Below, piece after piece: positions 18,715 through 64,000 of a DNA stretch of 64,000 bases (position 1 is the first letter of the stretch; every line of letters begins with the position of its first letter). This DNA comes from Thermodesulfobacteriota bacterium. Lineage in GTDB: Bacteria > Desulfobacterota_D > UBA1144 > Nemesobacterales > Mycalebacteriaceae. The notes under the pieces were generated by a model that saw only the letters and a list, made by a program, of their open reading frames with translations, was not told the origin of the DNA and searched no databases. The stretch spans positions 4,521-68,520 of the forward strand of contig CBDAQI010000001.1 of the NCBI GenBank assembly GCA_965198945.1. The letters run 5' to 3'. Position numbers and translations under genes: made by a program.

Positions 18715-19874
18715 TCGCCATTGTAGTATACATCTTGGAAATCAATATATAGCAATCGGAAAAACACTTCCCCAACCGGAGAGATATGGCGCATTTATAC
18801 CAGAAAGCGCATGTGATATTGAGTTTCAGTTTACACCTGAAACTGTAAAAAAAGCGCATGATACTGCTCTTGCAGTTGGCAAATTGGATGGAATCAGTCG
18901 GTTGCTGCCCGACATAGATTTTTTCCTTTTGATGTATATCCGCAAGGACGCCACCTCTTCAAGCAATATTGAGGGAACCAAAGCAACGCTGATTGAAAGC
19001 ATTGAGCAGGAAGCAAAGGTATCAAGTGAACTCCCCCGATGATGTTTCGGACATCACTTAGTATATAAAAGCGATGAACAAGGGTTTTGAAAACCTGGAG
19101 CAGATTCCAGTCAGCAATCGTTTCATACGGCTTCTACACAAGGAACTTATGGAGGGCGGAAGGGAGTCTCACTATTCGGACCCCGGAAACTTCCGCACCT
19201 CGCAGAACTGGATAGGAGGCAAATCTCTGCGGGAGGCAAGTTTTGTGCCGCCGCCACCGTCCGAAGTGCTGAGAGCAATGGGAGATCTGGAGAAATTCAT
19301 ACACAGGCGGGACAACATTCTGCCAATAATCAAGGCGGGAATTATCCACTCTCACTTTGAGACGATACATCCCTTTCTTGACGGAAACGGCAGAACGGGA
19401 AGGTTGCTGATAACCTTTTTCCTGAACAAGGAGGGTTTGCTGGAAAAACCCATTTTGTTTCTTTCCTCATTTTTTATAGAACACCGCCAATATTATTACG
19501 ACTGTTTAATATCGTATCATAATGGCGATTATACAAAGTGGATTGATTTCTTTTTGAACGGCGTTACCGAGACCGCAAATAAGTCAATAAAAACCGCAAA
19601 CAAAATCGTGGGAATACGCGAGCGGGATATGAAAAAGATTTCCGGCCTGTCAAAAAGAGCATCCCAAACGGCTTTGAAAATATATCCAAATCTTTTTGCA
19701 TTGCCGATTGTCAATACTACAAAAATAATGGAGTGGGGCGGTCTGACCCGCGCCGGAGCACAGAGTGTTGTGAACCGCTTCATTAAAATGGACATCCTAA
19801 AATCCAGAGACCCGGATAAAACCTACGGACGGTCTTATGTGTATGAGGAGTATTTGAGGGTTTTTGCGAATTGA
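18715..19874 (+). pseudogene. fic: Fic/Doc-family gene remnant: the N-terminal region is separated from the Fic core ORF by an in-frame stop and a frame discontinuity
   Basis: ORF 19074-19874 carries the Fic motif IHPFLDGNGRTGRLL. Upstream, without a start codon, frame A (18715-19032) encodes the Fic N-terminal signature ...LDGISRLLPDIDFFLLMYIRKDATSSSNIEGTKATLIESIEQEAKVSSELPR*. The next segment (PDDVSDIT-TAG-YIKAMNKGF...) has an in-frame TAG 15 nt before the ATG at 19074. Between the two segments the frame apparently changes at a C5 run. The sequence line covering 19021-19080 displayed only 5 ten-base blocks to me, so exact coordinates of the frame change there are uncertain by up to 10 nt. 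Confidence 0.6.
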
Positions 19875-20003
19875 AATACATTTATTGTGGGAAAGAAGAA
19901 AATGAAAGTAATTGAAGAAAATATATTGACTTGCAGAAGTTGCGGCTTAACCGACTGGCAAAGGCGTTTTATGGTAAAATCATTTTTCAACACGGGGAAT
20001 GTA

Positions 20004-20745
20004 TGGAAATGAATAAAGCATTAAGTCTTTTTCCAAACAGTTACAGGAGCAAAATAGAAATATCTCAAGGCAACTGTTTCTCTCTGATTCAAAAGATGGA
20101 AGACAACTGTGTTGACTTGATAGCAACAGACCCTCCTTATGAAATAAATTTTGAGGATAACTATTGGGACAAACCAAACACTCTGAACTGGGACTATTTG
20201 GCAAAAGAATTTAAAAGAGTTTTAAAACCCAATGGGGCTTTAATAATTTTTCAGGGTTGGTCTCAAGTCTGTGAAACCAAAGCAGTGTTGGACAAACATT
20301 TTCTTTTAAAAACTGGATTATTTATGACAGAATTAAGGGGAGAGGGGCAAAAACAAACGTAGTCTCAACCCGGGAAGACATCCTTTGGTATGTGGCAGAT
20401 GAAAAAGACTACACTTTTCACAAAATAGACTCCGCCATTAAGAAAAAAACGGGCGGAATGGGAAGAAAAAACGGCAGCATTTACAGAGCACTTTCAAACG
20501 TTTGGACTGACGTTCCTCCTTTAGTTCCGTGGGGAGAAGAAAAAGTTCCACACCCGACACAAAAACCCATTTTTATTATGAAACGAATAATAGAAATATT
20601 TTCCAACGAAAACGACCTTGTTTTAGACCCCTTCATAGGCAGTGGAACAACCGCTCTTGCATGCAAAGAAACAAACAGAAACTGTGTGGGTTTTGAATTA
20701 GACGAAAACTATTACCGACTTTGCCAGAAAAGATTCAATGATTGA
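20004..20745 (+). pseudogene. Beta-class DNA (N6-adenine/N4-cytosine) methyltransferase, DPPY motif; split by a 1-nt frame change
   Basis: ORF 19931-20362 has motif IV DLIATDPPYEI. ORF 20392-20745 has motif I LDPFIGSGTTALAC...GFELDENYY. The second frame is open back to 20275 and encodes SFKNWIIYDRIKGRGAKTNVVSTREDILWYVADEKDY..., the expected continuation. The frame change lies in the T/A runs at about 20298-20314. The likely start is the ATG at 20004 (MEMNKAL), downstream of an extended -10 TGgTAAAAT. Confidence 0.65.
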
Positions 20746-21004
20746 CAAGTTTAGAATAGGCATGACAAAATTACGAAAGAAATGTAGCGGCAGGGGGAAT
20801 GAAAAACAAATCCGCCGTTGGATAACGCCAAAGGCCTCTGGATTCAAATAAAAGCCGACTTGAAAGAGTTAAAACGTAGATCCAAGGATTGAGAGTTATA
20901 AAAACACGGATAAGTGTTGCATTGAAAGTTACTATACGGATATAATACAGAGTTGTTCAAGTCTTCTTAAGGAATTACCATTCTGATTCGCAGAGTCAGG
21001 AAGA

Positions 21005-22143
21005 ATGTTCAAAGAAATAACACTTCCTGTAGAGTCACTCTCAAACGCAGATAAAAACCTCGTCCAGCAGTTCAATCAGTACTTCAAAACTGATGACGTA
21101 AAGATTGTTCCTAACGGAAAATCCATTGAAGTCCAATTAAGGCAGGTTGACTTCTCTTTGATGGAGAAAGTTGTAGCCGACTTGACAGAATCAGCAAAAG
21201 ACAACAACCCGCTTACCATAACATTGGATGCCATAAGAAACATTAAAAGTTACAGTTTGAAGGGGAAAAAAAGGATTTATGTCGGCTATAACAAAGAAAG
21301 AAAAGTAAAAAACCGTGCCGAGAAGGAAAAACAAAGAGGTAAATATTTCTACGCAAAAGGGCATTCTTTCAAGAAAACAAACAACAAAGTGCCCAAGGAG
21401 TTTGTTGATAAAATTGTCTGCGGAGACAGTGAAAAAATTTTATCAGAAATTCCGGACAACTGCGTTGATATGGTATTGACTTCACCACCTTACAATTTTG
21501 GACTTAACTACAACAACAATAAAAATGACGAACACGACTGGAGAGAATATTTTGAAAAACTTTTTAAAGTTTTTGACCAGTGCGTAAGGGTTCTAAAATA
21601 TGGCGGAAGAATAATAGTTAATGTTCAACCGCTCTTTTCCGACTATATTCCAAGCCATCACATAATCAGTAAATACTTCATGGATAAAAAACTGATATGG
21701 AAGGGGGAAGTCATGTGGGAAAAGAATAACTACAACTGTAAATATACCGCCTGGGGAAGCTGGAAAAGTCCAAGCAATCCCTACCTGAAATACACATGGG
21801 AGTTTATAGAGATATTTTGCAAAGGAGATATGAAAAAGTCGGGAAACTCAAAAAATATAGATATTAGCGCTGACGAATTCAAAAAATGGGTCGTAGGCAA
21901 ATGGTCTGTCGCACCCGAACGTAAAATGAAGCAATATGGACATCCCGCCATGTTTCCCGAAGAAATAGCGAACCGCGCAATAAAACTGTTCAGTTTTAAA
22001 GGTGATTTAATACTTGATCCGTTCAATGGCGCGGGAACTACCACAACAGTTGCAAAAAAACTAGTCGTTCCTATCTGGGCGTAGATATTTCAAAAGATTA
22101 TTGTAAAACTGCAGAAAAAAGAGCAAGAGAGATTCTTTTATGA
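21005..22143 (+). pseudogene. Beta-class N4-cytosine/N6-adenine DNA methyltransferase (SPPY motif) with a ~130-aa N-terminal extension; C-terminus frameshifted at an A7 tract
   Basis: Motif IV VLTSPPYNFG and motif I LDPFNGAGTTTTVAKK. The ORF stops at 22084. An 8th A in the A7 run (22054-22060) would restore ...VAKKTSRSYLGVDISKDYCKTAEKRAREILL* ending at TGA 22141-22143, which is the canonical MTase C-terminus. Confidence 0.65.
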
Positions 22144-22808
22144 GTAAAGTGGGCTTCTCTCCTGAAGTTGAAAAAATCTTGGATGAAATCATAGAGGAAT
22201 ATGACCGCATTTTTCAAAATGTTCAGGGCAAAGCTCTGCAAGACTCAGAAAACAGGGCTTATGGTGGCGTAATCAGGTCTACAGTAGGCGGTTTCGTAGA
22301 ATGGATGACAAAACGCTTGGTTGTAGCTACATGGCTCACACTTGGCCAAAATCAAACTTCACTTAACTTCAAGAGCGGAAAATATAAACTCCCAATACTT
22401 CAACAATATGTTGACAATATAGAAATTCCAGAGGTTAAAAAACAAATCCAAGACAACATCGGCGACTACACCTACGGAATAGGACAAGATGTCCATGTTT
22501 ATGAAGAAGACGATTTTATTCTTTCAATTGAGTGCAAAGCGTATGCAGAAAACGCAATGCTAAAAAGAATCATTGTAGATTGCTGGTTTCTTCAAAAATT
22601 ATTTCCAACTTTGAAATTCGCTCTTATCCAACTGGAAAGCCAATTAACGGGAGATTATCACGAGTTAAATGAAATAACTTTTGGAAGCAAATCATCTCAT
22701 ACAATAATGTCTTATTTCGATGTTGATTTAAAGATAATAACACTGCTCAAGGGAGCGCGAAAAGTGAAAGAGCCAATACACAAATCAAGATTTTATAAAA
22801 CCTTATAA
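22140..22808 (+). CDS. Candidate type II restriction endonuclease (PD-(D/E)XK-like motif)
   Basis: The 222-aa ORF overlaps the restored MTase stop as ATGA. GIGQDVHVYEEDDFILSIECKAY fits a D...(D/E)xK nuclease core. Position and coupling match an R-M operon. There is no family-level recognition. Confidence 0.45.
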   Translation: MSKVGFSPEVEKILDEIIEEYDRIFQNVQGKALQDSENRAYGGVIRSTVGGFVEWMTKRLVVATWLTLGQNQTSLNFKSGKYKLPILQQYVDNIEIPEVKKQIQDNIGDYTYGIGQDVHVYEEDDFILSIECKAYAENAMLKRIIVDCWFLQKLFPTLKFALIQLESQLTGDYHELNEITFGSKSSHTIMSYFDVDLKIITLLKGARKVKEPIHKSRFYKTL

Positions 22809-22895
22809 AAGGATAGTTTGAAAAATGCAGTCAGGCAATTAACAGAATTAATTGAGTAGATTATTAATGTAAAACAATTTCTAACCGCTGATTGC

Positions 22896-23387
22896 TCACT
22901 CCCCTTCCAGCACAACAAGCACCGCGCCGCCTTCAACCGCGTCGCCTTCTTTTACTTTAATTTCTTTGATTTTTCCGGCCACGGACGCTTTTAATTCGCT
23001 TTCCATTTTCATCGCTTCAACAACAATCACACCCTCGTCGGTTTTGACCGAATCGCCTTCTTTTTTGAGTATTTTCACAACCCTGCTCGGCATCGGAGAG
23101 GAAATCTGCAAACCGCCGCCCTCTCCACCCGCAGACGATTCCCTTCCGGTGATTGATTCAAACTCATACAGTGTCCCTTCACAGAACACCTGAATTTTTT
23201 TGCCTTTTTTCACCACCCCGGCCGTAAAAGAGCCGTTCTTTTCGCAAACTATTGAAACAAGAGCGGGGTCAAGTCTTGCAAAGTCAACCTCTGAGGAAAA
23301 ATCGTCCGTCTCAACAACGGCGCGGCCGTCCTTATCTTCAATATTGACGCGAAACCTTTCATCACCGAGTTTAAGAATGTATTTCAC
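22896..23387 (-). CDS. Biotin carboxyl carrier protein (biotin/lipoyl attachment domain)
   Basis: C-terminal EAMKM biotinylation motif. The GTG at 23387 overlaps the accC stop as TAGTG; the longest ORF would start at the ATG at 23447. Confidence 0.8.
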   Translation of the reverse strand: MKYILKLGDERFRVNIEDKDGRAVVETDDFSSEVDFARLDPALVSIVCEKNGSFTAGVVKKGKKIQVFCEGTLYEFESITGRESSAGGEGGGLQISSPMPSRVVKILKKEGDSVKTDEGVIVVEAMKMESELKASVAGKIKEIKVKEGDAVEGGAVLVVLEGE

Positions 23388-53710: not shown

Positions 53711-54336
53711 AATTCGGCGAAGTTTTTCAAAATTTTCAAGCCCGCACCGGAGCTCTTTTCGGGATGAAACTGGCAGGCAAAAACATTGTTTTTTGCCACC
53801 GCCGCGGCAAATCTCACCCCGTGCTCGGTTTCAGCGGCGATTATTGAATCGTCATCAGAGTCAACACGGAAAGAGTGCGCGAAGTAGAACCAGTTCTCAT
53901 CACTAATTCCACTGAAAAGCGGAGAAGGCTTTTTCAAACAAACCCGGTTCCAGCCCATATGCGGAATTTTAAGCCCCGGCAAACCGGACGGAAACCTTCG
54001 CACCCGACCTCTGAAAATTCCAAGCCCCGGCTCGCCGGGGCTTTCATCACTGTGTTCAAAAAGAATCTGAAGTCCGAGACACATTCCAAGATACGGCCTG
54101 CCGCTGTCTATAAAATCCCGAATCGCTCCCGCGGCGCCGGTTTCTTTCAGAGACTGGGAACAGTCACCAAAAGCGGCGACGCCGGGAAAAACAAGGCGTT
54201 CTGACCCCTCTATGCTTTTCGCATCTGAGATTGCTCTGACTTTGAAGCCGAGAAACCTGAAAGCGTTAAGGACACTTTGCTGGTTTCCCATTCCATAGTC
54301 AAAAACGGTTACTTCCCCGCCGCCGGGTGAGTTCAT
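53692..54336 (-). CDS. hisH: Imidazole glycerol phosphate synthase, glutamine amidotransferase subunit
   Basis: 214 aa; class-I GATase GMCLGLQIL...FHPEKS. Confidence 0.92.
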   Translation of the reverse strand: MNSPGGGEVTVFDYGMGNQQSVLNAFRFLGFKVRAISDAKSIEGSERLVFPGVAAFGDCSQSLKETGAAGAIRDFIDSGRPYLGMCLGLQILFEHSDESPGEPGLGIFRGRVRRFPSGLPGLKIPHMGWNRVCLKKPSPLFSGISDENWFYFAHSFRVDSDDDSIIAAETEHGVRFAAAVAKNNVFACQFHPEKSSGAGLKILKNFAEFQPSEP

Positions 54337-54926
54337 AACGCGCCCTTTGTCGAGGGAATATCGCCATAGCGATTGTCAATGGCCGTTGCGAGGTCAAACG
54401 CGCGTCCGCATGATTTGAACATCGCCTCAATGTTGTGGTGCAGATTTTCTCCGCATTCAAGACGTATGTGCAGGTTGCAGCCCATGTTGTTTGAGAGTGA
54501 TTTGAAAAACTCACGGGCAAGTTCCGAATCAAAATCTCCCACCTTGGATTTGGGCATATCGGCATTGAACACAAGGCAGGGTCTTCCGCTTATGTCAACC
54601 GCGGTGAAAACAAGCGTGTCTTCAAACGGAACATATGAGTGCGCAAAGCGGACTATGCTTTTTTTCTCTCCGAGCGCTTCTCTGAAAGCGTTTCCGAGCG
54701 CTATGCCGACATCTTCAACCGTGTGATGGAAATCAACCTCGGTGTCGCCGATGGCTTTTATTTTAAGGTCAAAACAGCCGTGACGCGCAAACTGACACAG
54801 CATATGATCAAAAAACGGTATCCCGGTCTTAATATCAAACACACCGGCGCCGTCAACGTTCAAATCAACGCTGACTTTAACTTCATTGGTTTTTCTCTCA
54901 AAACTCGCTTTTCTTTCCGCAACCAT
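54333..54926 (-). CDS. hisB: Imidazoleglycerol-phosphate dehydratase
   Basis: 197 aa; ...RKTNEVKVSVDLNVDG...DTEVDFHHTVEDVGIALG... Confidence 0.93.
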   Translation of the reverse strand: MVAERKASFERKTNEVKVSVDLNVDGAGVFDIKTGIPFFDHMLCQFARHGCFDLKIKAIGDTEVDFHHTVEDVGIALGNAFREALGEKKSIVRFAHSYVPFEDTLVFTAVDISGRPCLVFNADMPKSKVGDFDSELAREFFKSLSNNMGCNLHIRLECGENLHHNIEAMFKSCGRAFDLATAIDNRYGDIPSTKGAL

Positions 54927-55029
54927 ATTGACCGCAATTAAATGAAAAATTCACACTTCCTGAACGTGAGGAAATTAGCTTAAGGTGAGACATTCAATTC
55001 TTACTCAATTTTAACACGGAGGCAGAAAA

Positions 55030-56763
55030 GTGAAACAGTTTTTGAAACTCTTGGGAGTATTTACGGTTTTAGTCCAGACTCTTGCGGCAACACAAAATTC
55101 ATGGGCACAGGAACAGCCCGCAGTGGTAAGATGCGAACTGCCGGATTGTAAAGTTACGCCAATTTTTACCGTGGGAGAAAGCATAGGTCAAAGCAACTAT
55201 ATGCCTCCGGGCCGGCTTGACGGCACCGGCGCATATAAACTGAATAAAAACACCGTCCGCGTTTTTGTAAACCACGAGATTTCCAGAAATGATTCCACCG
55301 GCTCCAACTATAAAAGGGGAGATAGAACGGGCGTCTTTGAACTTGAAGGGGCGCGTGTTTCCTATTTTGATTTCAACATGGAAACTCTCAAAGTCTTGGA
55401 CTCGGGAGTCGCCTTTTCAACAATCTACAACGCATCGGGCAATCCTGTTTCCGATAACAGTTTTTTACCGGTCAACTCACGAAATTACGGCTTTGACAAA
55501 TTTTGTTCGGCGAACTTGTTTGAGCCATTCCGGTTCGGACGGGGGCGGGGGTTTGTGGACCGCATCTTTATGACAAACGAAGAATCTTCATTGGGTCCCG
55601 GAGGAGCTTTCTGGGCTCTTAATCCGGAAGACCGCAGTCTGTGGCACGTATCAGCACTGGGACGCGGGAAATGGGAAAGCAGCACGCAGCTGGACACCGG
55701 ATCACCCGATAAGGTGGCTCTGATACTTTCAGATGATGAGTCTCCGTATGATGTGGACAGTGACGGGATAAGGGAATTGGCGCCCCTATACCTCTATGTG
55801 GGCATAAAAGATAAAAGCCCCGACGCCGACTTTCTTGCAAGAAACGGCCTGAGAAATGGAAAAATCTATGTCTGGGTCGCAGACAACAAATCAAAAAATC
55901 CGTCTGATTTCAGAGGCAAAGGGTCGCTGAGCGGCCGTTGGATGGAACTGGATACATCCGGAGGAACACCATCTGAAAACGGCGGTTCAGGTTTTGACGA
56001 ATATGGCAATCCGGGCCAGGTAAAACTCTGAAAAAGAGCCGAAGAAATCGGAGCGTTCGGCTTTTCACGACCCGAAGATGTGGCGACAAATCCCGAAAAC
56101 GGAAGGGAAGCCGTGCTTGCCTCAACCGGCAGTTCAAAACTCGGCAGCAACGCCGACAGAGTGGGCACCCTATACACAATTAAAACCGACTTTAGAAAAA
56201 TGACCGGCACATTAAAAATAGTCTACGACGGTGACATGGATCCAAGCAGAAGACTGCGCAGCCCCGACAATCTTGACTGGACTGACGACGGATGGATTTA
56301 TGTGCAGGAAGACATGGCCGCGGACACGGACGATGACGGCAGACCCATTTTCGGCGCCGGTGCGGCAAATCCTTATGAGGCAAGCATTGTGCGGATAAAT
56401 CCGGAAAACGGGGAAATTCAGCGCGTAGCGGAGATTGACCGAACTGCGGTATTGGACCCGAGCACCTTTGGAACCGCTTTTGACCGGTATGATGGGAAGG
56501 CGGGCAAATGGGAGACCTCCGGCATTTTGGATGTTTCAACCCTGTTCGGCAGGAAAAAAGGAACACTGTTCATTTTAGATGTGCGTGCCCACGGCATTAA
56601 AAACCAGAATGATCTCAATGGCGATTCCGAAATAGACGATGAAGGTCTTGTTGAGGGGGGTCAGTTGCTGTTCCTCGACCTTTCTGCCGACCGCAGCGCA
56701 GGCCGGGGTTCTGCCGGAAAACTCACAAACCTTCCCGGAAGCCGTGGACAACGCCTGCCGTAA
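55030..56763 (+). pseudogene. phoX: PhoX/DUF839-family secreted phosphatase interrupted by a single in-frame TGA (56029-56031); pseudogene, sequencing error or recoded codon
   Basis: ORFs 55030-56031 (with signal peptide) and 56080-56763 are in the same frame. Reading through the TGA gives ...GNPGQVKL-TGA-KRAEEIGAFGFSRPEDVATNPENG.... The C-terminal half has PhoX hallmarks (SPDNLDWTDDGWIYVQED; TLFILDVRAHG). Confidence 0.55.
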
Positions 56764-57155
56764 CTTGAAACATAGAAGGCGCAGCGCAACTCTTTGAACG
56801 ACACGGAAACCGCTGAAAATACTGCCGCCATGCTCACAAAATGACGAAATCAGCGGAGAGGCGCAAAAAACTTCACAATGAAAAGGGGTGAGCTCTTTGG
56901 GGCGGTCGGAGCAGAAATATGGTTTTCAAATATACTGAAATCGGAGACCTGACATAATTGGATAGAAACCACTGTCGTATTGGGCAAAGGCGGCTTTGAA
57001 CCTCCGCATCACATATGAAGCAGAGGTTAAAGAGCTACTGAGCTCATACTCAATGACCGCAAAATTTGGTATTAATCTGTGAAAGCGTCTTTTTAAGAAA
57101 CCGTGTAGACAGACCGAGCAATGAGGTTTCAAAGCATGACGCGCCGCAACCGGCC

Positions 57156-57189
57156 TTACAACAGGCCGTTTTCAACAAAGCTGTAGTGG
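57156..57189 (-). repeat. Copy A of a ~35-bp direct repeat (equals the last 10 codons plus stop of radC)
   Basis: acaaca-gg-CCGTTTTCAACAAAGCTGTAGTGG (24/24 core) matches 59723-59754. On the minus strand it encodes HYSFVENGLL* as at the real radC end. Confidence 0.7.
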
Positions 57190-57305
57190 CCATGCCGATA
57201 TCTTCAACGGTGTGATGGAAATCAACCTCGGCGTCGCCGTCAACGTTCAAATCAACGCTGACTTTAACTTCATTGGTTTTTCTCTCAAAACTCGCTTTTC
57301 TTTCC
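57190..57305 (-). pseudogene. Partial duplicate of the hisB 5' coding region (two blocks with an internal deletion; start codon lost)
   Basis: 57190-57236 matches hisB 54702-54748 with 3 mismatches. 57236-57302 is identical to hisB 54850-54916 (67/67). Sequence diverges exactly at the start-codon position. Confidence 0.7.
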
Positions 57306-57704
57306 GGAGGTATTGCCAGAAAACTTAACGGAATTGTGGGGATAGGGCAATAACGCTGGAACCTCTAAAACCTATTTTCTGTAATTCCGTATTTGACATA
57401 CAGACTCGCTCCTTATTACCGTTTTAGGGTGGAACCGAGTTGCCAAATCTCTGTGAATGCAAAAATCCACGGAAAATAAAAGGAGGTTTAGATAAACAAC
57501 AATGGCTTCATACTATGGCGTTTTTTATTTGTATATCAGTTATGACAGTTTCACTTATTGGAATATATTCACTTCTGTTTAGGGTTCATCAATGGATAAT
57601 AAACTGTTTCAAATGCTTTAAGGATATTTTGAACCTAAGAATATTAATAGTTCTGTACGTTGCTAATTTATACGAATTTCTAAAACAAAAAAGCTACAAG
57701 GTCT

Positions 57705-59075
57705 TCACATTTTATAAATTAGCATGAAACCATTGAATTGAACTGCTTCAGATACTGACTCATTTACTTCCGTATCTTTATCATAGTAGTTAAACTGATG
57801 GTATGGTGATTCCAAATCAGTTTTCATCCAATGAAGTTTTTTGTTGTCAGTTCCAATTTTTTCAAAGTAATTTTTGGCATATTGCGGAAGAACGGCGCCA
57901 TCAGAGTGGATCATCAATGTTGGTTTTTTGAGGTCTGCGGCCGTTGACATAGGATCCGCCGTTAACCAATCTTCCCAGGAGATTACGGCAAATTCTTTAT
58001 TACTCCACTCCGGTACTGCACCACGATCAGAGTTGAGATAATAGTCATAAGGACCGTACATTGCGGCAGAGGGATCTTCGGTAGAAATAGTCGGGATATA
58101 TTGAACTAGACCGTTTTCAGCATAATCTCTTTTTGCTTTTTTGGCCGCACTCAATTTTTCATTTACTCCTTCTTCTCCGCCGTAAAAGAGTTTAACGGCT
58201 TCGGCGTCATGAAGCCAAGCGGCAACTGTAACAACCGATTGGATTCTATTATCTTCTGCGGTTGCCATAAGAGTATACATCCCACCTGCGCAAACCCCGA
58301 AGGCTCCAATCCTTGAATCATCTACCTCAGATACGGTTTCTAAGAAAGAAACGGCATTTTTAATGTCTTCCTTTTTAAGACTCGGACTCTCATAATATCT
58401 CGGTTCTCCTTCACTTTCCCCATAATTCCTGAAGTCGAAAGCTAGCGTAATGAAGCCTTCGTTGGCAAGTTTTTCTGCATATAAACCCGCCATTTGTTCT
58501 TTTACCGTAGTCCAACTGCCCGACACTACAATAGCGGGATATTTTCTTGACTTGTCAAAGTTAGGGGGAAAAAACATATTGCCTACAAGATTAGCGCCTT
58601 CGCTATTAAAATTGATTTTCTTCATTTGTATATGTTTATCCTCCATTTTTATTTTATTCAGCAAACCAAAACCACGTGCAGCCACTATGGGATTGAATAT
58701 TTCAACATACTCGGTAATCAAACCCTGATCATTGAATTTGAAAGTTGAATAGTATTGATTCTCATATAGTCGTGCGCTATTCTTTAACCTGATTTTACCT
58801 TTATATTTAACGTAAACAATATTAGGATCTTCCATGGCATAAATTTCTTCAATTGGGAACTCCATTCCATCAAAATTGGAAAAGACGGGCGCCCAATAAT
58901 TTCGTATTTCCTCTCTGCCAACTGCGCCGCCGGAAAATATCCCCGATGCGTAAGGATTGATTTGTTCAGCATTATGGGCGAATAGAGATGCCAAAACCTC
59001 CACATTTTCACTTTCCAACGCCTTGAAAAACTTTTTGGCCGTTTCTTTATTTTTAATCGATTTGTCTTTATTCAT
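57705..59075 (-). CDS. Fusion protein: N-terminal SnoaL/NTF2-like domain plus C-terminal alpha/beta hydrolase (dienelactone-hydrolase-like)
   Basis: 456 aa, low-GC gene. The C-terminal region has alpha/beta-hydrolase features (GVCAGG nucleophile-elbow-like; ...HSDGA...). Confidence 0.65.
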   Translation of the reverse strand: MNKDKSIKNKETAKKFFKALESENVEVLASLFAHNAEQINPYASGIFSGGAVGREEIRNYWAPVFSNFDGMEFPIEEIYAMEDPNIVYVKYKGKIRLKNSARLYENQYYSTFKFNDQGLITEYVEIFNPIVAARGFGLLNKIKMEDKHIQMKKINFNSEGANLVGNMFFPPNFDKSRKYPAIVVSGSWTTVKEQMAGLYAEKLANEGFITLAFDFRNYGESEGEPRYYESPSLKKEDIKNAVSFLETVSEVDDSRIGAFGVCAGGMYTLMATAEDNRIQSVVTVAAWLHDAEAVKLFYGGEEGVNEKLSAAKKAKRDYAENGLVQYIPTISTEDPSAAMYGPYDYYLNSDRGAVPEWSNKEFAVISWEDWLTADPMSTAADLKKPTLMIHSDGAVLPQYAKNYFEKIGTDNKKLHWMKTDLESPYHQFNYYDKDTEVNESVSEAVQFNGFMLIYKM

Positions 59076-59117
59076 ATGGATTTCTATTTTAAAATTTTCT
59101 GATTCTTTTTGTCGCCT

Positions 59118-59585
59118 CTATTCTGAGTTGAGCAATCTCTTTATTGCCTTCTCCGATAGTAATGTATTTCCATGCTGATATTTGAAATTAAATTTCATTG
59201 ATGAAATTTTCCAATTATCCGAACCATCTTTTATCAAATCAAAGTCGTAAGTTCCGACCACTACCCATAGGCTGGCTTCATTATCTTTTAAATGGTGACT
59301 TGCCGTTCCATAACACGACAAATATGCAGCATCCCCTCGGTAGGAGACCTGGAAATTACCTAATTGGTGGTGGGTGGCATCAAAACCGGGAAGAATACCC
59401 TTCCATGAGGCGATAATTTGTTTGGCTGACATTTTAGCTGCTGGTCTACCATTCATGGATGAATAGTCTAAACTAACTTTTGAGTTAAACGACTTTTCTA
59501 CAACATCCCAATCACGATTATCCGTGGCTACAAACATATTAATAACCACATCTTTGGGCGATTTCGTGTTCCGTGCATTATTCAT
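59118..59585 (-). CDS. SnoaL-like/NTF2-family protein
   Basis: 155 aa, low GC, NTF2-like cone-fold sequence pattern. Confidence 0.6.
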   Translation of the reverse strand: MNNARNTKSPKDVVINMFVATDNRDWDVVEKSFNSKVSLDYSSMNGRPAAKMSAKQIIASWKGILPGFDATHHQLGNFQVSYRGDAAYLSCYGTASHHLKDNEASLWVVVGTYDFDLIKDGSDNWKISSMKFNFKYQHGNTLLSEKAIKRLLNSE

Positions 59586-59720
59586 ATGAACTAAAAATCT
59601 GCAAATCCACTCTTTAAGCGACTGTTTTCTACTTTCAGATGTTTCAATAAATTGTTGAAAAATTCTCCGGGGTTTACGGGCTTTTTTTCCAAACTCAAAT
59701 CACAGAGATTAACAACATTC

Positions 59721-60074
59721 TCACAACAACCCGTTTTCAACAAAGCTGTAGTGGTCGTTGGAACAGACACTTATATGGTCAACAAGCCGTATGTCAAGTG
59801 ATTTGCAGATTCGGGCAAGTTCTTCGGTTATTTCTTTGTCGCTCTCAGACGGCTGAGGGTGGCCGCTCGGATGGTTGTGAACGACAATGATTCCCGAGCA
59901 TTTTTTCAGATCAATAGCCTTTTTCACCACATCTCTTATGTTCATACTGACGCTTCCGACCGAGCCTTCCGACACAACCTCGTGCTTGAGAAACTGGTTT
60001 TTTGTGTTGACAAAAACCAGAACCATAAACTCCCTGCTTTCCCTGCCTATTCTTGATTTGCAAAAATCTATCAC
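59721..60074 (-). CDS. radC: RadC-family JAB/MPN domain protein (C-terminal half of RadC)
   Basis: 117 aa with the JAMM motif ...IIVVHNHPSGHPQPSESD.... Its last 35 nt are copy B of the direct repeat. Confidence 0.85.
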   Translation of the reverse strand: MIDFCKSRIGRESREFMVLVFVNTKNQFLKHEVVSEGSVGSVSMNIRDVVKKAIDLKKCSGIIVVHNHPSGHPQPSESDKEITEELARICKSLDIRLVDHISVCSNDHYSFVENGLL

Positions 60075-60412
60075 CGACCGGGGGAAGTGAGGTAGTCTCC
60101 GGACTCAATTTTTGTCTCCATATAACGCCAGTTCATTTCTTTTATCAGGGTTATGAAAGCGGCCGTGATATCTCCTATGCCCGCAACTTTTGTCAACTCA
60201 TCGGCGGGAGCGTCCATAACGGCTGACAATGAACCGAATCTGGCAAGCAGATTTTTTGCCGCCGGTTTCACATCCCCGCGCGGCACGGAATAAGTAAGGA
60301 GCAGTTCCAGAGCCTCGTAGTCGGCAAACGAGACAAGCCCCTCAGTGAGAAACCTGTTTCTGAGACGTTTTCTGTGACCCGCGTAGTGAGGAATTTCCCT
60401 TTCGCCGCTCAT
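60071..60412 (-). CDS. RadC N-terminal (helix-hairpin-helix) domain ORF, overlapping the JAB ORF as ATGA
   Basis: 113 aa; ...YEALELLLTY...AKNLLARFGSL..., the RadC N-terminal region. Standard RadC has both halves in one polypeptide. Confidence 0.65.
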   Translation of the reverse strand: MSGEREIPHYAGHRKRLRNRFLTEGLVSFADYEALELLLTYSVPRGDVKPAAKNLLARFGSLSAVMDAPADELTKVAGIGDITAAFITLIKEMNWRYMETKIESGDYLTSPGR

Positions 60413-62605: not shown

Positions 62606-63448
62606 CTATTTACTGAAAAGCGCTTTGCCGGAGCGCCCGCGCTCAAGGATTTTCGTGAGTTTTTCCGTATCGCGGGATTTGACGGCGGCGGCGGTTTCGG
62701 CAACGGACTCTGAAAAGCTCTCCAGCGCTTCAAGAACCGGACTTGAGTTCCGGATGAGTATTTCCGCCCACATCGCGGGGTCGCTCATGGCTATTCTCGT
62801 CGTATCTCTGAGCCCGCCGCCTGAAAGAGACAGAGCGTCGGCGCTGCCCGAACAAGCGGATGCGGCAACTGAAGCAAGCGAATAGGCGCAGACATGAGGC
62901 AAATGGCTTATAAATGCAAACACGCGGTCGTGTTCTTCGGGGGACATTCCGAAGATGTTCGCGCCCGTTTTTCTCCACATATCTTTAACCTTGCCTGAAG
63001 ATTTGTCGTCTCCGCCGGTTATTATCAGGGGGTTTCCGTCAAATATGCCCGTCTTATAGCTTCGGGCGCCGTGCTTTTCATCTCCCGCAATCGGATGTGC
63101 GGGAACAAAACCGACTCCCTCGGGCAGAATCCGGCTCATCAGCTCGCAAACCGGAACCTTAACACTTGCCACATCCGTCACAACAACTCCCGGGCGCGCA
63201 ACCGCAAAAAAAGCGCGCGCAACCGCCTCCATGGAGCCAACCGGGACGGCAAGCACACAGACGTCCACACCGGAGCGAACACCGGACGGATCGTTCAGTC
63301 CTATGTCAATGAGACCTTTTGAAATACAGTTGGCAACCGAATCAGGGTTGCTGTCAACGCCGGTAATCTCAGACGCGATTCCCCTCTCCTTCAAATCAGC
63401 GCAAAGAGACGCGCCTATCTTGCCGAGCCCTATGACCGCAACTTTCAT
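62606..63448 (-). CDS. tyrA: Prephenate/arogenate dehydrogenase
   Basis: 280 aa; N-terminal Rossmann MKVAVIGLGKIGASL and a TyrA catalytic region. Confidence 0.88.
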   Translation of the reverse strand: MKVAVIGLGKIGASLCADLKERGIASEITGVDSNPDSVANCISKGLIDIGLNDPSGVRSGVDVCVLAVPVGSMEAVARAFFAVARPGVVVTDVASVKVPVCELMSRILPEGVGFVPAHPIAGDEKHGARSYKTGIFDGNPLIITGGDDKSSGKVKDMWRKTGANIFGMSPEEHDRVFAFISHLPHVCAYSLASVAASACSGSADALSLSGGGLRDTTRIAMSDPAMWAEILIRNSSPVLEALESFSESVAETAAAVKSRDTEKLTKILERGRSGKALFSK

Positions 63449-64000
63449 GTTTTTCTCACCTTCTCAAGAGCCCGGATAAACGCCCTGTTCTGCCGTTCAT
63501 CGCCGACAGTAACTCTTATGTGGTTGTCAAGCCCGTAAGCGGAGACCGGGCGGACTATAACGCCTTCACGCAGGAGCAGCTCGTAGACACGGGAGGAGTT
63601 CTCTCCCAAATCTGCGAGGACAAAGTTCGCCCTCGAGTCCGTGCGCGTTATTCCCATGGAGTCAAGCCGGGATGAAATATATTCAACACCCTCAAGGTTC
63701 GCTTTGCGCGAAAGAGCACAGTGGCGCGAGTCCTCAAGAGCCGCGGCCGCGGCCTTCTGGGCAAGAGAGTTCACATTAAAAGGCTCCCTCGCACGGTTCA
63801 AAAGAGCCGCCACTTCTTCGGAAGCAACCGCATATCCTATCCTTGTTCCGGCAAGTCCGTAGATTTTTGAAAACGTTCTGACGGTTATAAGCCCCGGCCT
63901 TGATGATTGGTAGTCAAGCGTGTCCGGGTAAAGAGGGTCATCCACATACTCAAAATAGGCTTCGTCAACAACAATGACAACGTCTTCGGGAACTTTGCCG
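63445..64000 (-). CDS. hisC: Histidinol-phosphate/aromatic aminotransferase (class II), 3' portion; gene continues beyond the window
   Basis: ...TFSKIYGLAGTRIGYAV..., the PLP-lysine region of HisC-type aminotransferases. Overlaps the tyrA start by 4 nt. Confidence 0.85.
   Translation of the reverse strand, partial: GKVPEDVVIVVDEAYFEYVDDPLYPDTLDYQSSRPGLITVRTFSKIYGLAGTRIGYAVASEEVAALLNRAREPFNVNSLAQKAAAAALEDSRHCALSRKANLEGVEYISSRLDSMGITRTDSRANFVLADLGENSSRVYELLLREGVIVRPVSAYGLDNHIRVTVGDERQNRAFIRALEKVRKT

Follow-up and report, generated by a model that had tools for sequence, protein, structure and literature searches.

The interval between radC and hisB in the window, the 64-kb stretch of DNA that was analysed, is read as a composite scar of rearrangement that seems to serve no function itself, and the most likely route to it, with a probability of about 0.65 for this reading, is the integration of a circular DNA from a related strain by a single crossover. 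Along the reading direction of radC, the order is radC with its own 3' end (repeat copy B), a low-GC gene, native spacer, a dead hisB 5' end, a joint at 57188/57189, an orphaned radC 3' end (copy A), a second non-ancestral block (block 2) and an intact hisB.

The ancestral arrangement was deduced from nine close relatives (L001 and L083-L090; Candidatus Dadabacteria), which were gathered, along with their contigs, by a RadC protein search and whose RadC proteins are 73-87% identical to that of the window. All nine share the order cofC(-), radC, hisB, hisH, slt(-). Their radC-hisB gap measures 16-278 bp, compared with 4.8 kb in the window, and the radC tail and the hisB head, each present twice in the window, are single-copy in every one of them. 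This shows that ancestrally radC lay directly upstream of hisB, which was followed by hisH. The first-pass annotation had considered that related genomes might display the window's configuration as the ancestral one; it was found in 0 of the 9, radC adjoining hisB in all. In L001 coordinates the window reads 1-1601, cargo, 1644-1955, 2056-2105, 1568-1602, block 2 and 1886 onward, an order characteristic of direct duplication of 1568-2105, the new joint being 2105|1568. In a hisB-based scan of genome contigs, the relatives among the matches listed were at most 67% identical and labelled Dadabacteria or Thermodesulfobacteriota; among these listed matches the cofC-hisB gap is variable.

Because the duplicated segment spans the radC tail to hisB, a 35-bp direct repeat in the window is most likely its radC-tail end and a 220-bp hisB repeat its opposite end. 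The 35-bp repeat (57155-57189, copy A; 59720-59754, copy B; both minus strand) is identical at 32 of 35 positions. Copy B comprises the last 10 codons of the resident radC, the stop codon and one nucleotide, and copy A, here termed radC', is an orphan radC end. An identical 24-nt core, CCGTTTTCAACAAAGCTGTAGTGG, occupies 57166-57189 and 59731-59754; at up to 3 mismatches it has exactly 2 matches in the 64-kb window and none in 100 shuffles. A third copy of the repeat was found neither within the window (up to 3 mismatches) nor at the far end of block 2. The first-pass annotation had described this core, had read HYSFVENGLL-stop on the minus strand of both copies, and had taken copy B as the true RadC C-terminus, at the end of the JAB ORF 59721-60074, and copy A as the orphan; all of this was recovered. 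The three differences between the copies are all silent (GGC/GGG, CTG/TTG, TAA/TGA). Since 17 of the 99 possible single-base changes in the copy A stretch are silent, three out of three has a P of ~0.005; for the 2 differences specific to copy A, both silent, P is ~0.03. Such a pattern, which rests on three sites, is as expected if copy A originated from another functional radC allele.

At 57188/57189, hisB is joined at nt ~227 to a point in radC that lies 35 nt ahead of the end of the stop codon; this novel illegitimate joint was read directly and from alignments. Judged by its sequence, it marks where the two copies of a direct duplication, from radC -35 to hisB nt ~227, meet head to tail. 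The duplicated radC tail (35 nt) and hisB head (220 nt, with a 102-bp deletion in one copy) have the same order and the same orientation. The overlap at the joint is 1 nt (G), which is compatible with end-joining and indicates no specific pathway. Scans of a metagenome DNA collection for the joint, and for a motif of the spacer that L001 shares, gave no match; as L001 itself was not recovered from that collection, this negative carries no weight.

Upstream of the joint lies hisB' (57189-57313, minus strand), a pseudogene fragment that comprises codons 1 to ~76 of the original hisB 5' end and is recognised by Pfam IGPD in ORF 57050-57250 (E=2e-5). Its start codon has been lost (ATG to ATA at 57311-57313), a 102-bp in-frame deletion flanked by two CGCCG repeats has occurred at 57239/57240, and three non-synonymous changes specific to the fragment fall within the otherwise invariant DTEVDFHHTVEDVGIA motif. 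The adjoining DNA (57314-57659, minus strand) is the ancestral radC-hisB intergenic region, as determined by blastn (L001 1644-1747 against 57659-57560, 72%; L001 1768-1955 against 57425-57237, 84%) and by global alignment with L001 (181/231 = 78%). The AT-rich spacer at 57305-57704, which the first-pass annotation had assigned to an integrated cargo, is thus in large part native. Its view that the hisB fragment is chromosomal rather than foreign agrees with the finding of an original hisB 5' end together with native upstream spacer. It had also described the fragment as two blocks beside copy A: the second is indeed 67/67 identical to the real hisB (57240-57306 against 54853-54919), and the first carries 4 mismatches, not 3 (57189-57239 against 54700-54750, 47/51). 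These hisB differences, 0/67 versus 4/51, are marginally uneven (P ~0.04, an estimate), a distribution that gene conversion could explain equally well. In total, 7 of 153 aligned positions differ between the duplicated radC-tail and hisB stretches, and this divergence, the lost start codon, the 102-bp deletion and the three amino-acid changes in an invariant motif make it doubtful that the duplication is recent, as had been proposed.

The working hisB, by contrast with hisB', encodes an intact IGPD of 197 aa (54333-54926, minus strand; Pfam IGPD E=2e-61; 93% protein identity to L001 HisB), and its positions 54700-54919 form the second copy of the duplicated 5' segment. Codons 1-3 (ATG GTT GCG) and the DNA upstream differ abruptly from hisB': 5 of the first 9 nucleotides differ and the upstream sequence is unalignable, after which 67 nt are identical, which places a breakpoint at codon 3. 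The N-terminus, MVAERKAS, resembles MAAERKAS, a genuine allele present in L085. The original head of hisB is hisB', and the working gene is the one with the new leader; one complete, predicted functional hisB has been retained.

The interiors of the two duplicated segments are shown to be different: the upstream one holds the cargo and the native spacer, the downstream one a PhoX-like block that takes up all the space between the radC' stop and the hisB start. The cargo (block 1, 57660-59719, minus strand) is 2060 bp of low-GC foreign DNA with a GC of 0.38 and a GC3 of 0.36-0.38, as opposed to a GC3 of 0.51-0.59 in the flanking genes. It carries one three-domain gene (Pfam SnoaL_4, SnoaL_2, alpha/beta hydrolase), which an in-frame TAG (59118-59120) leaves as two ORFs, 59118-59585 and 57705-59075. 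The first-pass annotation had rightly regarded this DNA as low in GC and foreign but had counted two genes; the homologs are single genes, among them the 621-aa protein P0002, which aligns end to end at 64% identity, with the TAG falling in an interdomain linker. Homologs that bear names are from Bacteroidota, and the P0002 contig has Por_Secre_tail and SprB genes. A plasmid search yielded one match, 63% identical, on a 615-kb replicon of Aureibacter tunicatorum (Bacteroidota), which agrees with the donor phylum and names no vehicle. The gene is of Bacteroidota type. The cargo is absent from all nine relatives, was inserted directly after the radC stop, outside the coding region, and its junctions are no more than 41 bp apart in ancestral (L001) coordinates.

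Block 2 (54927-57154, plus strand; 2228 bp), which lies just outside the coordinates treated in the first-pass annotation, has a host-like GC of 0.49 and is likewise absent from 9 of 9 relatives. Its PhoX/DUF839-like gene (55030-56763) is interrupted by a TGA at 56029-56031, where the best homolog, P0246 (named alkaline phosphatase PhoX, 57% identical), has Trp. Sensitive local alignment revealed no remnants of the ancestral spacer above shuffled controls in the flanks of block 2 or of the cargo, and no viral contigs carrying the cargo gene or the PhoX-like gene were found. The resident radC (59721-60412, minus strand) is split into ORFs 60071-60412 (HhH/UPF0758_N) and 59721-60074 (JAB; Pfam RadC, E=6e-34) by a 1-nt deletion at ~60078-60084, in a C-run of the coding strand. 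In an alignment with L001, L083 and L085 this single-base gap occurs only in the window, and RadC is intact (229-246 aa) in all nine relatives. A disabling mutation is thus present in radC as well as in both acquired genes, that of the cargo and the PhoX-like one.

A plausible sequence of events would begin in a related strain with the order radC, PhoX block, hisB, from which a fragment may have been circularised by end-joining of hisB nt ~227 to radC -35. The circle would then have integrated, in the manner of a Campbell insertion, by one homologous crossover within the 5' part of hisB, on a chromosome already equipped with the cargo, the latter having presumably come by a separate, recombinase-independent insertion. 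Integration would have doubled 220 bp of hisB. The remainder of the gene would thereby have acquired the incoming head, intact and with a start codon of its own, and the displaced original head would have decayed afterwards. That single-crossover integration of circularised DNA leaves duplications of 109-950 bp of the homologous locus has been shown experimentally (PMC3240628). From the silent differences of copy A, the breakpoint at codon 3 and the hisB-like N-terminus we infer that the incoming DNA probably came from a distinct circular donor molecule. Counting against this route, the presumed donor order radC, PhoX block, hisB was not found, the best PhoX-like homolog being 57% identical and the genomic context of another, P0307 (labelled Thermodesulfobacteriota), being unrelated to radC/hisB; nor was the recipient order radC, cargo, spacer, hisB found in the nine relatives.

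A tandem duplication in situ, from radC -35 to hisB +227, through illegitimate sister-strand exchange in an ancestor with the L001-like order radC, spacer, hisB, would likewise yield the head-to-tail joint and both repeats; cargo would later have entered the first copy, and in the second, independently, the PhoX block would have taken the place of the whole spacer and of the initial hisB codons. No unsampled donor strain is required, and the 67/67 stretch agrees with formerly identical copies. What makes this course rather unlikely is that it takes at least three events, among them a clean replacement of everything between the radC' stop and hisB codon 3, which must leave no remnant of the spacer and must by chance supply an in-frame start and a hisB-like N-terminus; moreover, changes that are all silent are unexpected in copy A if it is a dead fragment. 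An assembly artefact, in which the assembly strung together the radC-hisB intervals of two co-existing strains or took a Bacteroidota fragment into the contig, is very improbable. The source is a metagenome-derived contig of 393 kb, identical repeats of 24 and 67 nt could confuse an assembly graph, and one frameshift falls in a homopolymer run. Yet the overlap at the joint is 1 nt, too short for any k-mer or read overlap to have created it; the upstream copy of hisB has decayed to a pseudogene, so that a path swap at the 67-nt repeat would not give two functional haplotypes; and the cargo junctions lie as close together in ancestral coordinates as those of a true insertion.

The first-pass annotation had interpreted the 35-bp repeat as an att duplication. 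According to this model, an attB that overlaps the 3' end of radC was the target of site-specific integration by a mobile element, which doubled a 35-bp att core and whose integrase was lost afterwards. Foreign low-GC DNA does lie between direct copies of a conserved gene's 3' end, both foreign blocks start 1-2 nt from a radC stop codon, and Tn554-family elements of Firmicutes are known to target radC. A homology boundary at the stop codon would be anticipated in any event because non-coding DNA diverges faster. The repeats enclose ~470 bp of native spacer (~347 bp) and hisB 5' DNA in native order, and the junction of copy A with hisB coding sequence is foreseen by no att model. On the other side of copy A is a second non-ancestral block of 2.2 kb, the anatomy of a duplication joint rather than of attL/attR. 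Comparison with relatives, which had been suggested as a means of defining attL and attR, likewise spoke against the model: deletion of 57189-59753 leaves radC, block 2 and hisB, a configuration that matches none of the nine, and it takes away native DNA as well, both the spacer and the hisB 5' end. The earlier observation that no integrase remains holds true, since 54927-59719 holds no ORFs of substantial size besides the PhoX-like and SnoaL/hydrolase genes. Neither the ORFs nor Pfam nor PHROG searches disclosed a recombinase, excisionase, transposase or other mobility gene in 54927-59719, and the model is left with neither a third repeat copy nor terminal inverted repeats, none of which occur at the block boundaries. 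Such an integration event is therefore hardly credible. No Rfam or PHROG families were found, and matches in a promoter/terminator consensus scan equalled chance expectation.

Two specific elements were rejected. Tn554 carries tnpA/B/C, has its insertion site inside radC and is not known to create a long target duplication. For a Tn554-family transposon (att554), tnpA, tnpB and tnpC were not found, and the insertion follows the radC stop instead of lying inside radC. For an IS element or composite transposon, neither terminal inverted repeats at the block boundaries nor a transposase ORF were found.

Of the known systems, the locus may be compared most directly with Campbell-type integrants, such as those of suicide plasmids and the lacZ duplications of 109-950 bp formed in E. 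coli conjugation (PMC3240628). As in these, an insert lies between direct repeats of a chromosomal segment some hundreds of bp long, the interrupted gene survives intact in one copy, an illegitimate closure joint lies inside the insert and no site-specific recombinase is needed. Unlike these, the locus is natural and belongs to an uncultured Dadabacteria-like genome, its circle and donor are presumed, and its copies have diverged, one of them to the point of decay.

Homology-facilitated illegitimate recombination, as outlined in PMC5361080 (citing de Vries & Wackernagel 2002, Prudhomme et al. 2002), may also resemble the locus in the capture of foreign or allelic DNA beside a conserved gene through homology on one side and an illegitimate joint on the other. 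At the locus the homology lies in hisB and the overlap at the joint is 1 nt. For the classic experiments, overlaps of ~3-10 nt are reported. The orphan arrays at T6SS effector-immunity and Rhs loci are proposed in PMC5361080 to stem from such recombination, and displaced remnants of a former gene end persist there as they do here. The difference is that the locus is a duplication rather than a displacement or deletion and has one orphan end, not an array.

Islands made by integrases, with attL/attR repeats at a gene or tRNA 3' end and including Tn554-family insertions in radC (att554; staphylococci, enterococci), resemble the locus in that a direct repeat from the radC 3' end brackets foreign DNA. 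The 3' end of a conserved gene as target and a compositionally foreign insert are both present at the locus, and the relatives carry a single copy of the repeat, as would be the case for such islands. The locus differs in having no recombinase, in bracketing DNA that is partly native and in the fusion of the second repeat copy to hisB. RecA-independent tandem segmental duplication, through illegitimate or microhomology-mediated exchange, shares with the locus a head-to-tail joint with minimal microhomology, the direct order of the copies and a later microhomology-mediated deletion in one copy (102 bp, CGCCG repeats); a simple duplication does not predict wholly different interiors.

The locus is an instance of ordinary genome decay and flux, a small, clean example of known processes that raises no new question. 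It carries a caution, since low-GC DNA set between direct copies of a gene's 3' end looks like an att duplication, and here the relatives reveal the repeat as one end of a segmental duplication joint. A broader and distinctly doubtful suggestion is that the radC-hisB (or cofC-hisB) gap, near the replication origin, is a recombinase-independent hotspot of gene capture in Dadabacteria that operates by homology-anchored or single-crossover recombination. If so, it would have captured foreign genes such as the Bacteroidota-type hydrolase and the PhoX-like phosphatase here and defence-like ATPase modules in more distant relatives, and orphan radC tails and hisB heads would pile up as at Rhs/T6SS loci. 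For this uncultured Dadabacteria-like genome, the locus records two gene acquisitions across phyla, apparently accomplished without a dedicated recombinase, both of whose genes are already decaying, and it shows how hisB, an essential gene of biosynthesis, can outlast damage to its 5' end through a replacement head.

Copies A (57155-57189) and B (59720-59754) of the 35-nt repeat agree at 32 of 35 nt, including a 24-nt identical core that has exactly two matches in the 64-kb window when up to three mismatches are allowed and none in 100 shuffles. On the minus strand both copies encode HYSFVENGLL-stop, the C-terminus of RadC. The ORF of the RadC JAB domain (59721-60074; Pfam RadC, E=6e-34) terminates in copy B; copy A is the end of no ORF. 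The observations of the first-pass annotation are confirmed, including its description of copy B as the real radC end and of copy A as an orphan. The three differences between the copies are all silent (GGC/GGG, CTG/TTG, TAA/TGA). Silent changes make up 17 of the 99 possible in this stretch, which gives P ~0.005 for three out of three and P ~0.03 if only the two differences specific to copy A are considered. radC is itself split into an HhH ORF (60071-60412) and the JAB ORF by a 1-nt deletion at ~60078-60084, in a C/G homopolymer, relative to the related contigs L001, L083 and L085; either the gene is a true pseudogene, or the homopolymer was misread in sequencing.

The ancestral order of the locus is revealed by nine contigs of related genomes. 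L001, a 3.9-kb JGI contig whose hisB is a >90%-identical cluster mate of the window hisB, has the order cofC(-), radC (230 aa, intact), a 278-bp spacer, hisB, hisH, slt(-). A RadC search added relatives at 73-80% identity, some named Candidatus Dadabacteria or Candidatus Mycalebacterium, and the eight of their contigs that were compared (L083-L090) all have the same gene order, with just 16-94 bp separating radC from hisB, within a conserved block from dnaA and dnaN to radC, hisB, hisH, slt and leuA. Since these contigs share the radC-hisB order, the two genes were ancestrally adjacent; in the window they lie 4.8 kb apart. In L083-L085 (1-4000) dnaA and dnaN are located ~7-9 kb upstream of radC, which probably places the rearranged locus near the origin of replication; the window stops within hisC (~63445-64000), short of that region. 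In more distant Dadabacteria-like contigs (L008 5276-10000, L013 7709-10000, L012 8510-10000) the cofC-hisB gap measures 1.2-4.7 kb, and tblastn with the L001 RadC found no radC in it. Accessory genes occupy the gap instead: that of L008 holds an HTH_17 protein, a 925-aa AAA_23/AAA_21 ATPase and a Schlafen/AlbA_2 + HATPase_c_4 protein, and that of L013 an AAA_21/AAA_15 ATPase and a DUF4276 protein; the region upstream of hisB thus appears to vary across the phylum.

A blastn comparison of L001 with the window, followed in the direction of radC transcription, dissects the rearrangement. L001 1-1601 matches window 61319-59720, which comprises cofC and radC to its stop and ends in copy B. The cargo (59719-57660, 2060 bp) is without L001 counterpart and is followed by matches to L001 1644-1747 (window 57659-57560, 72% identity), 1768-1955 (57425-57237, 84% identity) and 2056-2105 (57238-57189). 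The path then jumps back to L001 1568-1602 (57188-57154), which is copy A, enters a second block without L001 counterpart (block 2, 57154-54927, 2228 bp) and resumes at L001 1886-3867 (54919-52938) with hisB from codon 3, hisH and slt. The segment between the repeats, previously read as cargo with an AT-rich spacer, is thus foreign only in its cargo after radC; the spacer is native radC-hisB intergenic DNA, 78% identical to that of L001. The window and L001 have this long AT-rich spacer in common (window 57314-57659, L001 1603-1878; ~280-350 bp, GC 0.35-0.42), against 16-94 bp in the other relatives. It has no Rfam match and may itself be an older insertion in this sub-lineage.

The hisB fragment adjoining copy A (57189-57313, minus strand) is likewise native, as had been proposed. 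It matches hisB at 47/51 positions (57189-57239 against 54700-54750) and 67/67 positions (57240-57306 against 54853-54919), and it is the original hisB 5' end with its native upstream region still attached. Judged by its sequence the fragment is dead: it begins with ATA instead of the ATG start codon of L001, 102 bp have been lost between two CGCCG repeats, and the otherwise invariant motif DTEVDFHHTVEDVGIA carries T to A, V to I and I to M changes absent from every relative. The working hisB (197 aa; Pfam IGPD, E=2e-61) differs from the fragment in its leader and in codons 1-3 (ATG GTT GCG versus ATA CCT CCG) and is then identical over 67 nt, an abrupt breakpoint at codon 3. Its N-terminus reads MVAERKAS, that of the L085 hisB MAAERKAS.

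At 57188/57189 hisB breaks off at nt ~227 and the sequence continues, across a single shared G, in radC at 35 nt from the end of the radC stop codon. A direct duplication of the segment radC -35 to hisB +227 would produce just such a head-to-tail junction. This duplicated segment has the 35-nt repeat at one end and the 220-nt hisB repeat at the other, and the locus contains a duplication with an illegitimate joint. The earlier proposal of att duplication by site-specific integration at the radC 3' end is not supported: it fails the tests that define such an integration, and copy A is half of the duplication joint. Searches of ORFs, Pfam, PHROG and block boundaries revealed no recombinase, transposase or terminal inverted repeats in either block, and no viral contigs with relatives of either block were found.

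The foreign nature of the cargo, already part of the first-pass reading, is supported by composition and homology. GC between the repeats is 0.29-0.44 in 300-nt windows, against ~0.50-0.55 on either side, and cargo GC3 is 0.36-0.38, against 0.51-0.59 for radC, hisB, hisH, cofC and slt. Pfam detects SnoaL_4, SnoaL_2 and alpha/beta hydrolase domains, and the closest homologues are single proteins of ~620 aa, the nearest 72% identical when the window's own entry is set aside. The homologue P0002 (621 aa) aligns end to end at 64% identity, with a lone in-frame TAG (59118-59120) in the interdomain linker of the window gene; an ATG 14 codons downstream could allow two separate products. Named homologues belong to Bacteroidota, genes characteristic of this phylum, Por_Secre_tail and SprB, occur on the P0002 contig, and the GC of the cargo matches such a donor (0.37 for the L002 gene). 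At the cargo-spacer boundary a perfect 12-nt inverted repeat (57661-57672/57713-57724; TGCTAATTTATA/TATAAATTAGCA) straddles the hydrolase stop codon. GTTGTT occurs on both sides of the left cargo junction (59707-59730), in the last radC codons (GGGTTGTTGTGA) and ~10 nt downstream at the first cargo bases (AATGTTGTTAA), at most a hint of microhomology used in the insertion, or chance.

Block 2 has a host-like GC of 0.49 and contains a PhoX/DUF839-like gene (55030-56763) whose best homologue is only 57% identical. A TGA (56029-56031), which probably arose from TGG by nonsense mutation, breaks its reading frame where that homologue has Trp (NLW versus KL*). A separate protein recorded for the source contig corresponds to the N-terminal 333 aa. 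With the radC deletion, the cargo TAG and this TGA, all three dispensable genes of the interval are disrupted; hisB, hisH and cofC are intact.

We favor an origin in which a related strain supplied a DNA fragment that circularised and then integrated by a single crossover (Campbell-type integration). In this donor the PhoX block would have lain between radC and hisB; a junction of hisB +227 with radC -35 would have closed the circle, and recombination would have taken place within the hisB head. One such event would account for the two repeats, the joint, the intact state of the downstream hisB and its genuine-looking alternative N-terminus, the exclusively silent differences between copies A and B, and the clean lack of spacer DNA beside block 2, in whose flanks local alignment found no ancestral spacer traces. 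Such integrations have been shown in E. coli to leave 109-950 bp of the homologous locus in duplicate (PMC3240628), and related captures anchored by homology have been put forward to explain the orphan arrays of T6SS and Rhs loci (PMC5361080). The main rival, plausible though less likely, is tandem duplication in situ followed by two separate insertions; it requires more steps, among them the chance gain of an in-frame start by hisB. An assembly artefact is improbable: an overlap of 1 nt at the joint is too short to produce a spurious connection in the graph, the upstream hisB copy has evolved as a pseudogene and does not represent a second functional haplotype, and both cargo junctions lie ≤41 bp apart in ancestral coordinates.

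A second low-GC island (19000-22900; GC down to 0.37 in 2-kb windows) appears unrelated to the radC-hisB scar. Judged by eye, its ORFs resemble genes for a Fic/DOC-like protein (19074-19874), a DNA methyltransferase split in two (19931-20362 and 20392-20745), a second methyltransferase (21005-22084) and a possible restriction-enzyme partner (22140-22808).

What remains at the radC-hisB locus is an unremarkable but clearly legible trace of horizontal acquisition combined with illegitimate or homologous recombination. A distance of 4.8 kb now separates hisB-hisH from radC, and their transcription presumably must start in the 103 bp between hisB and the divergent PhoX-like gene, where a consensus scan, within chance expectation, gave no promoter site. 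Recombination between the hisB repeats would place the dead ATA start on hisB and should be selected against; recombination between the 24-nt cores could remove the cargo together with the spacer and the hisB fragment.
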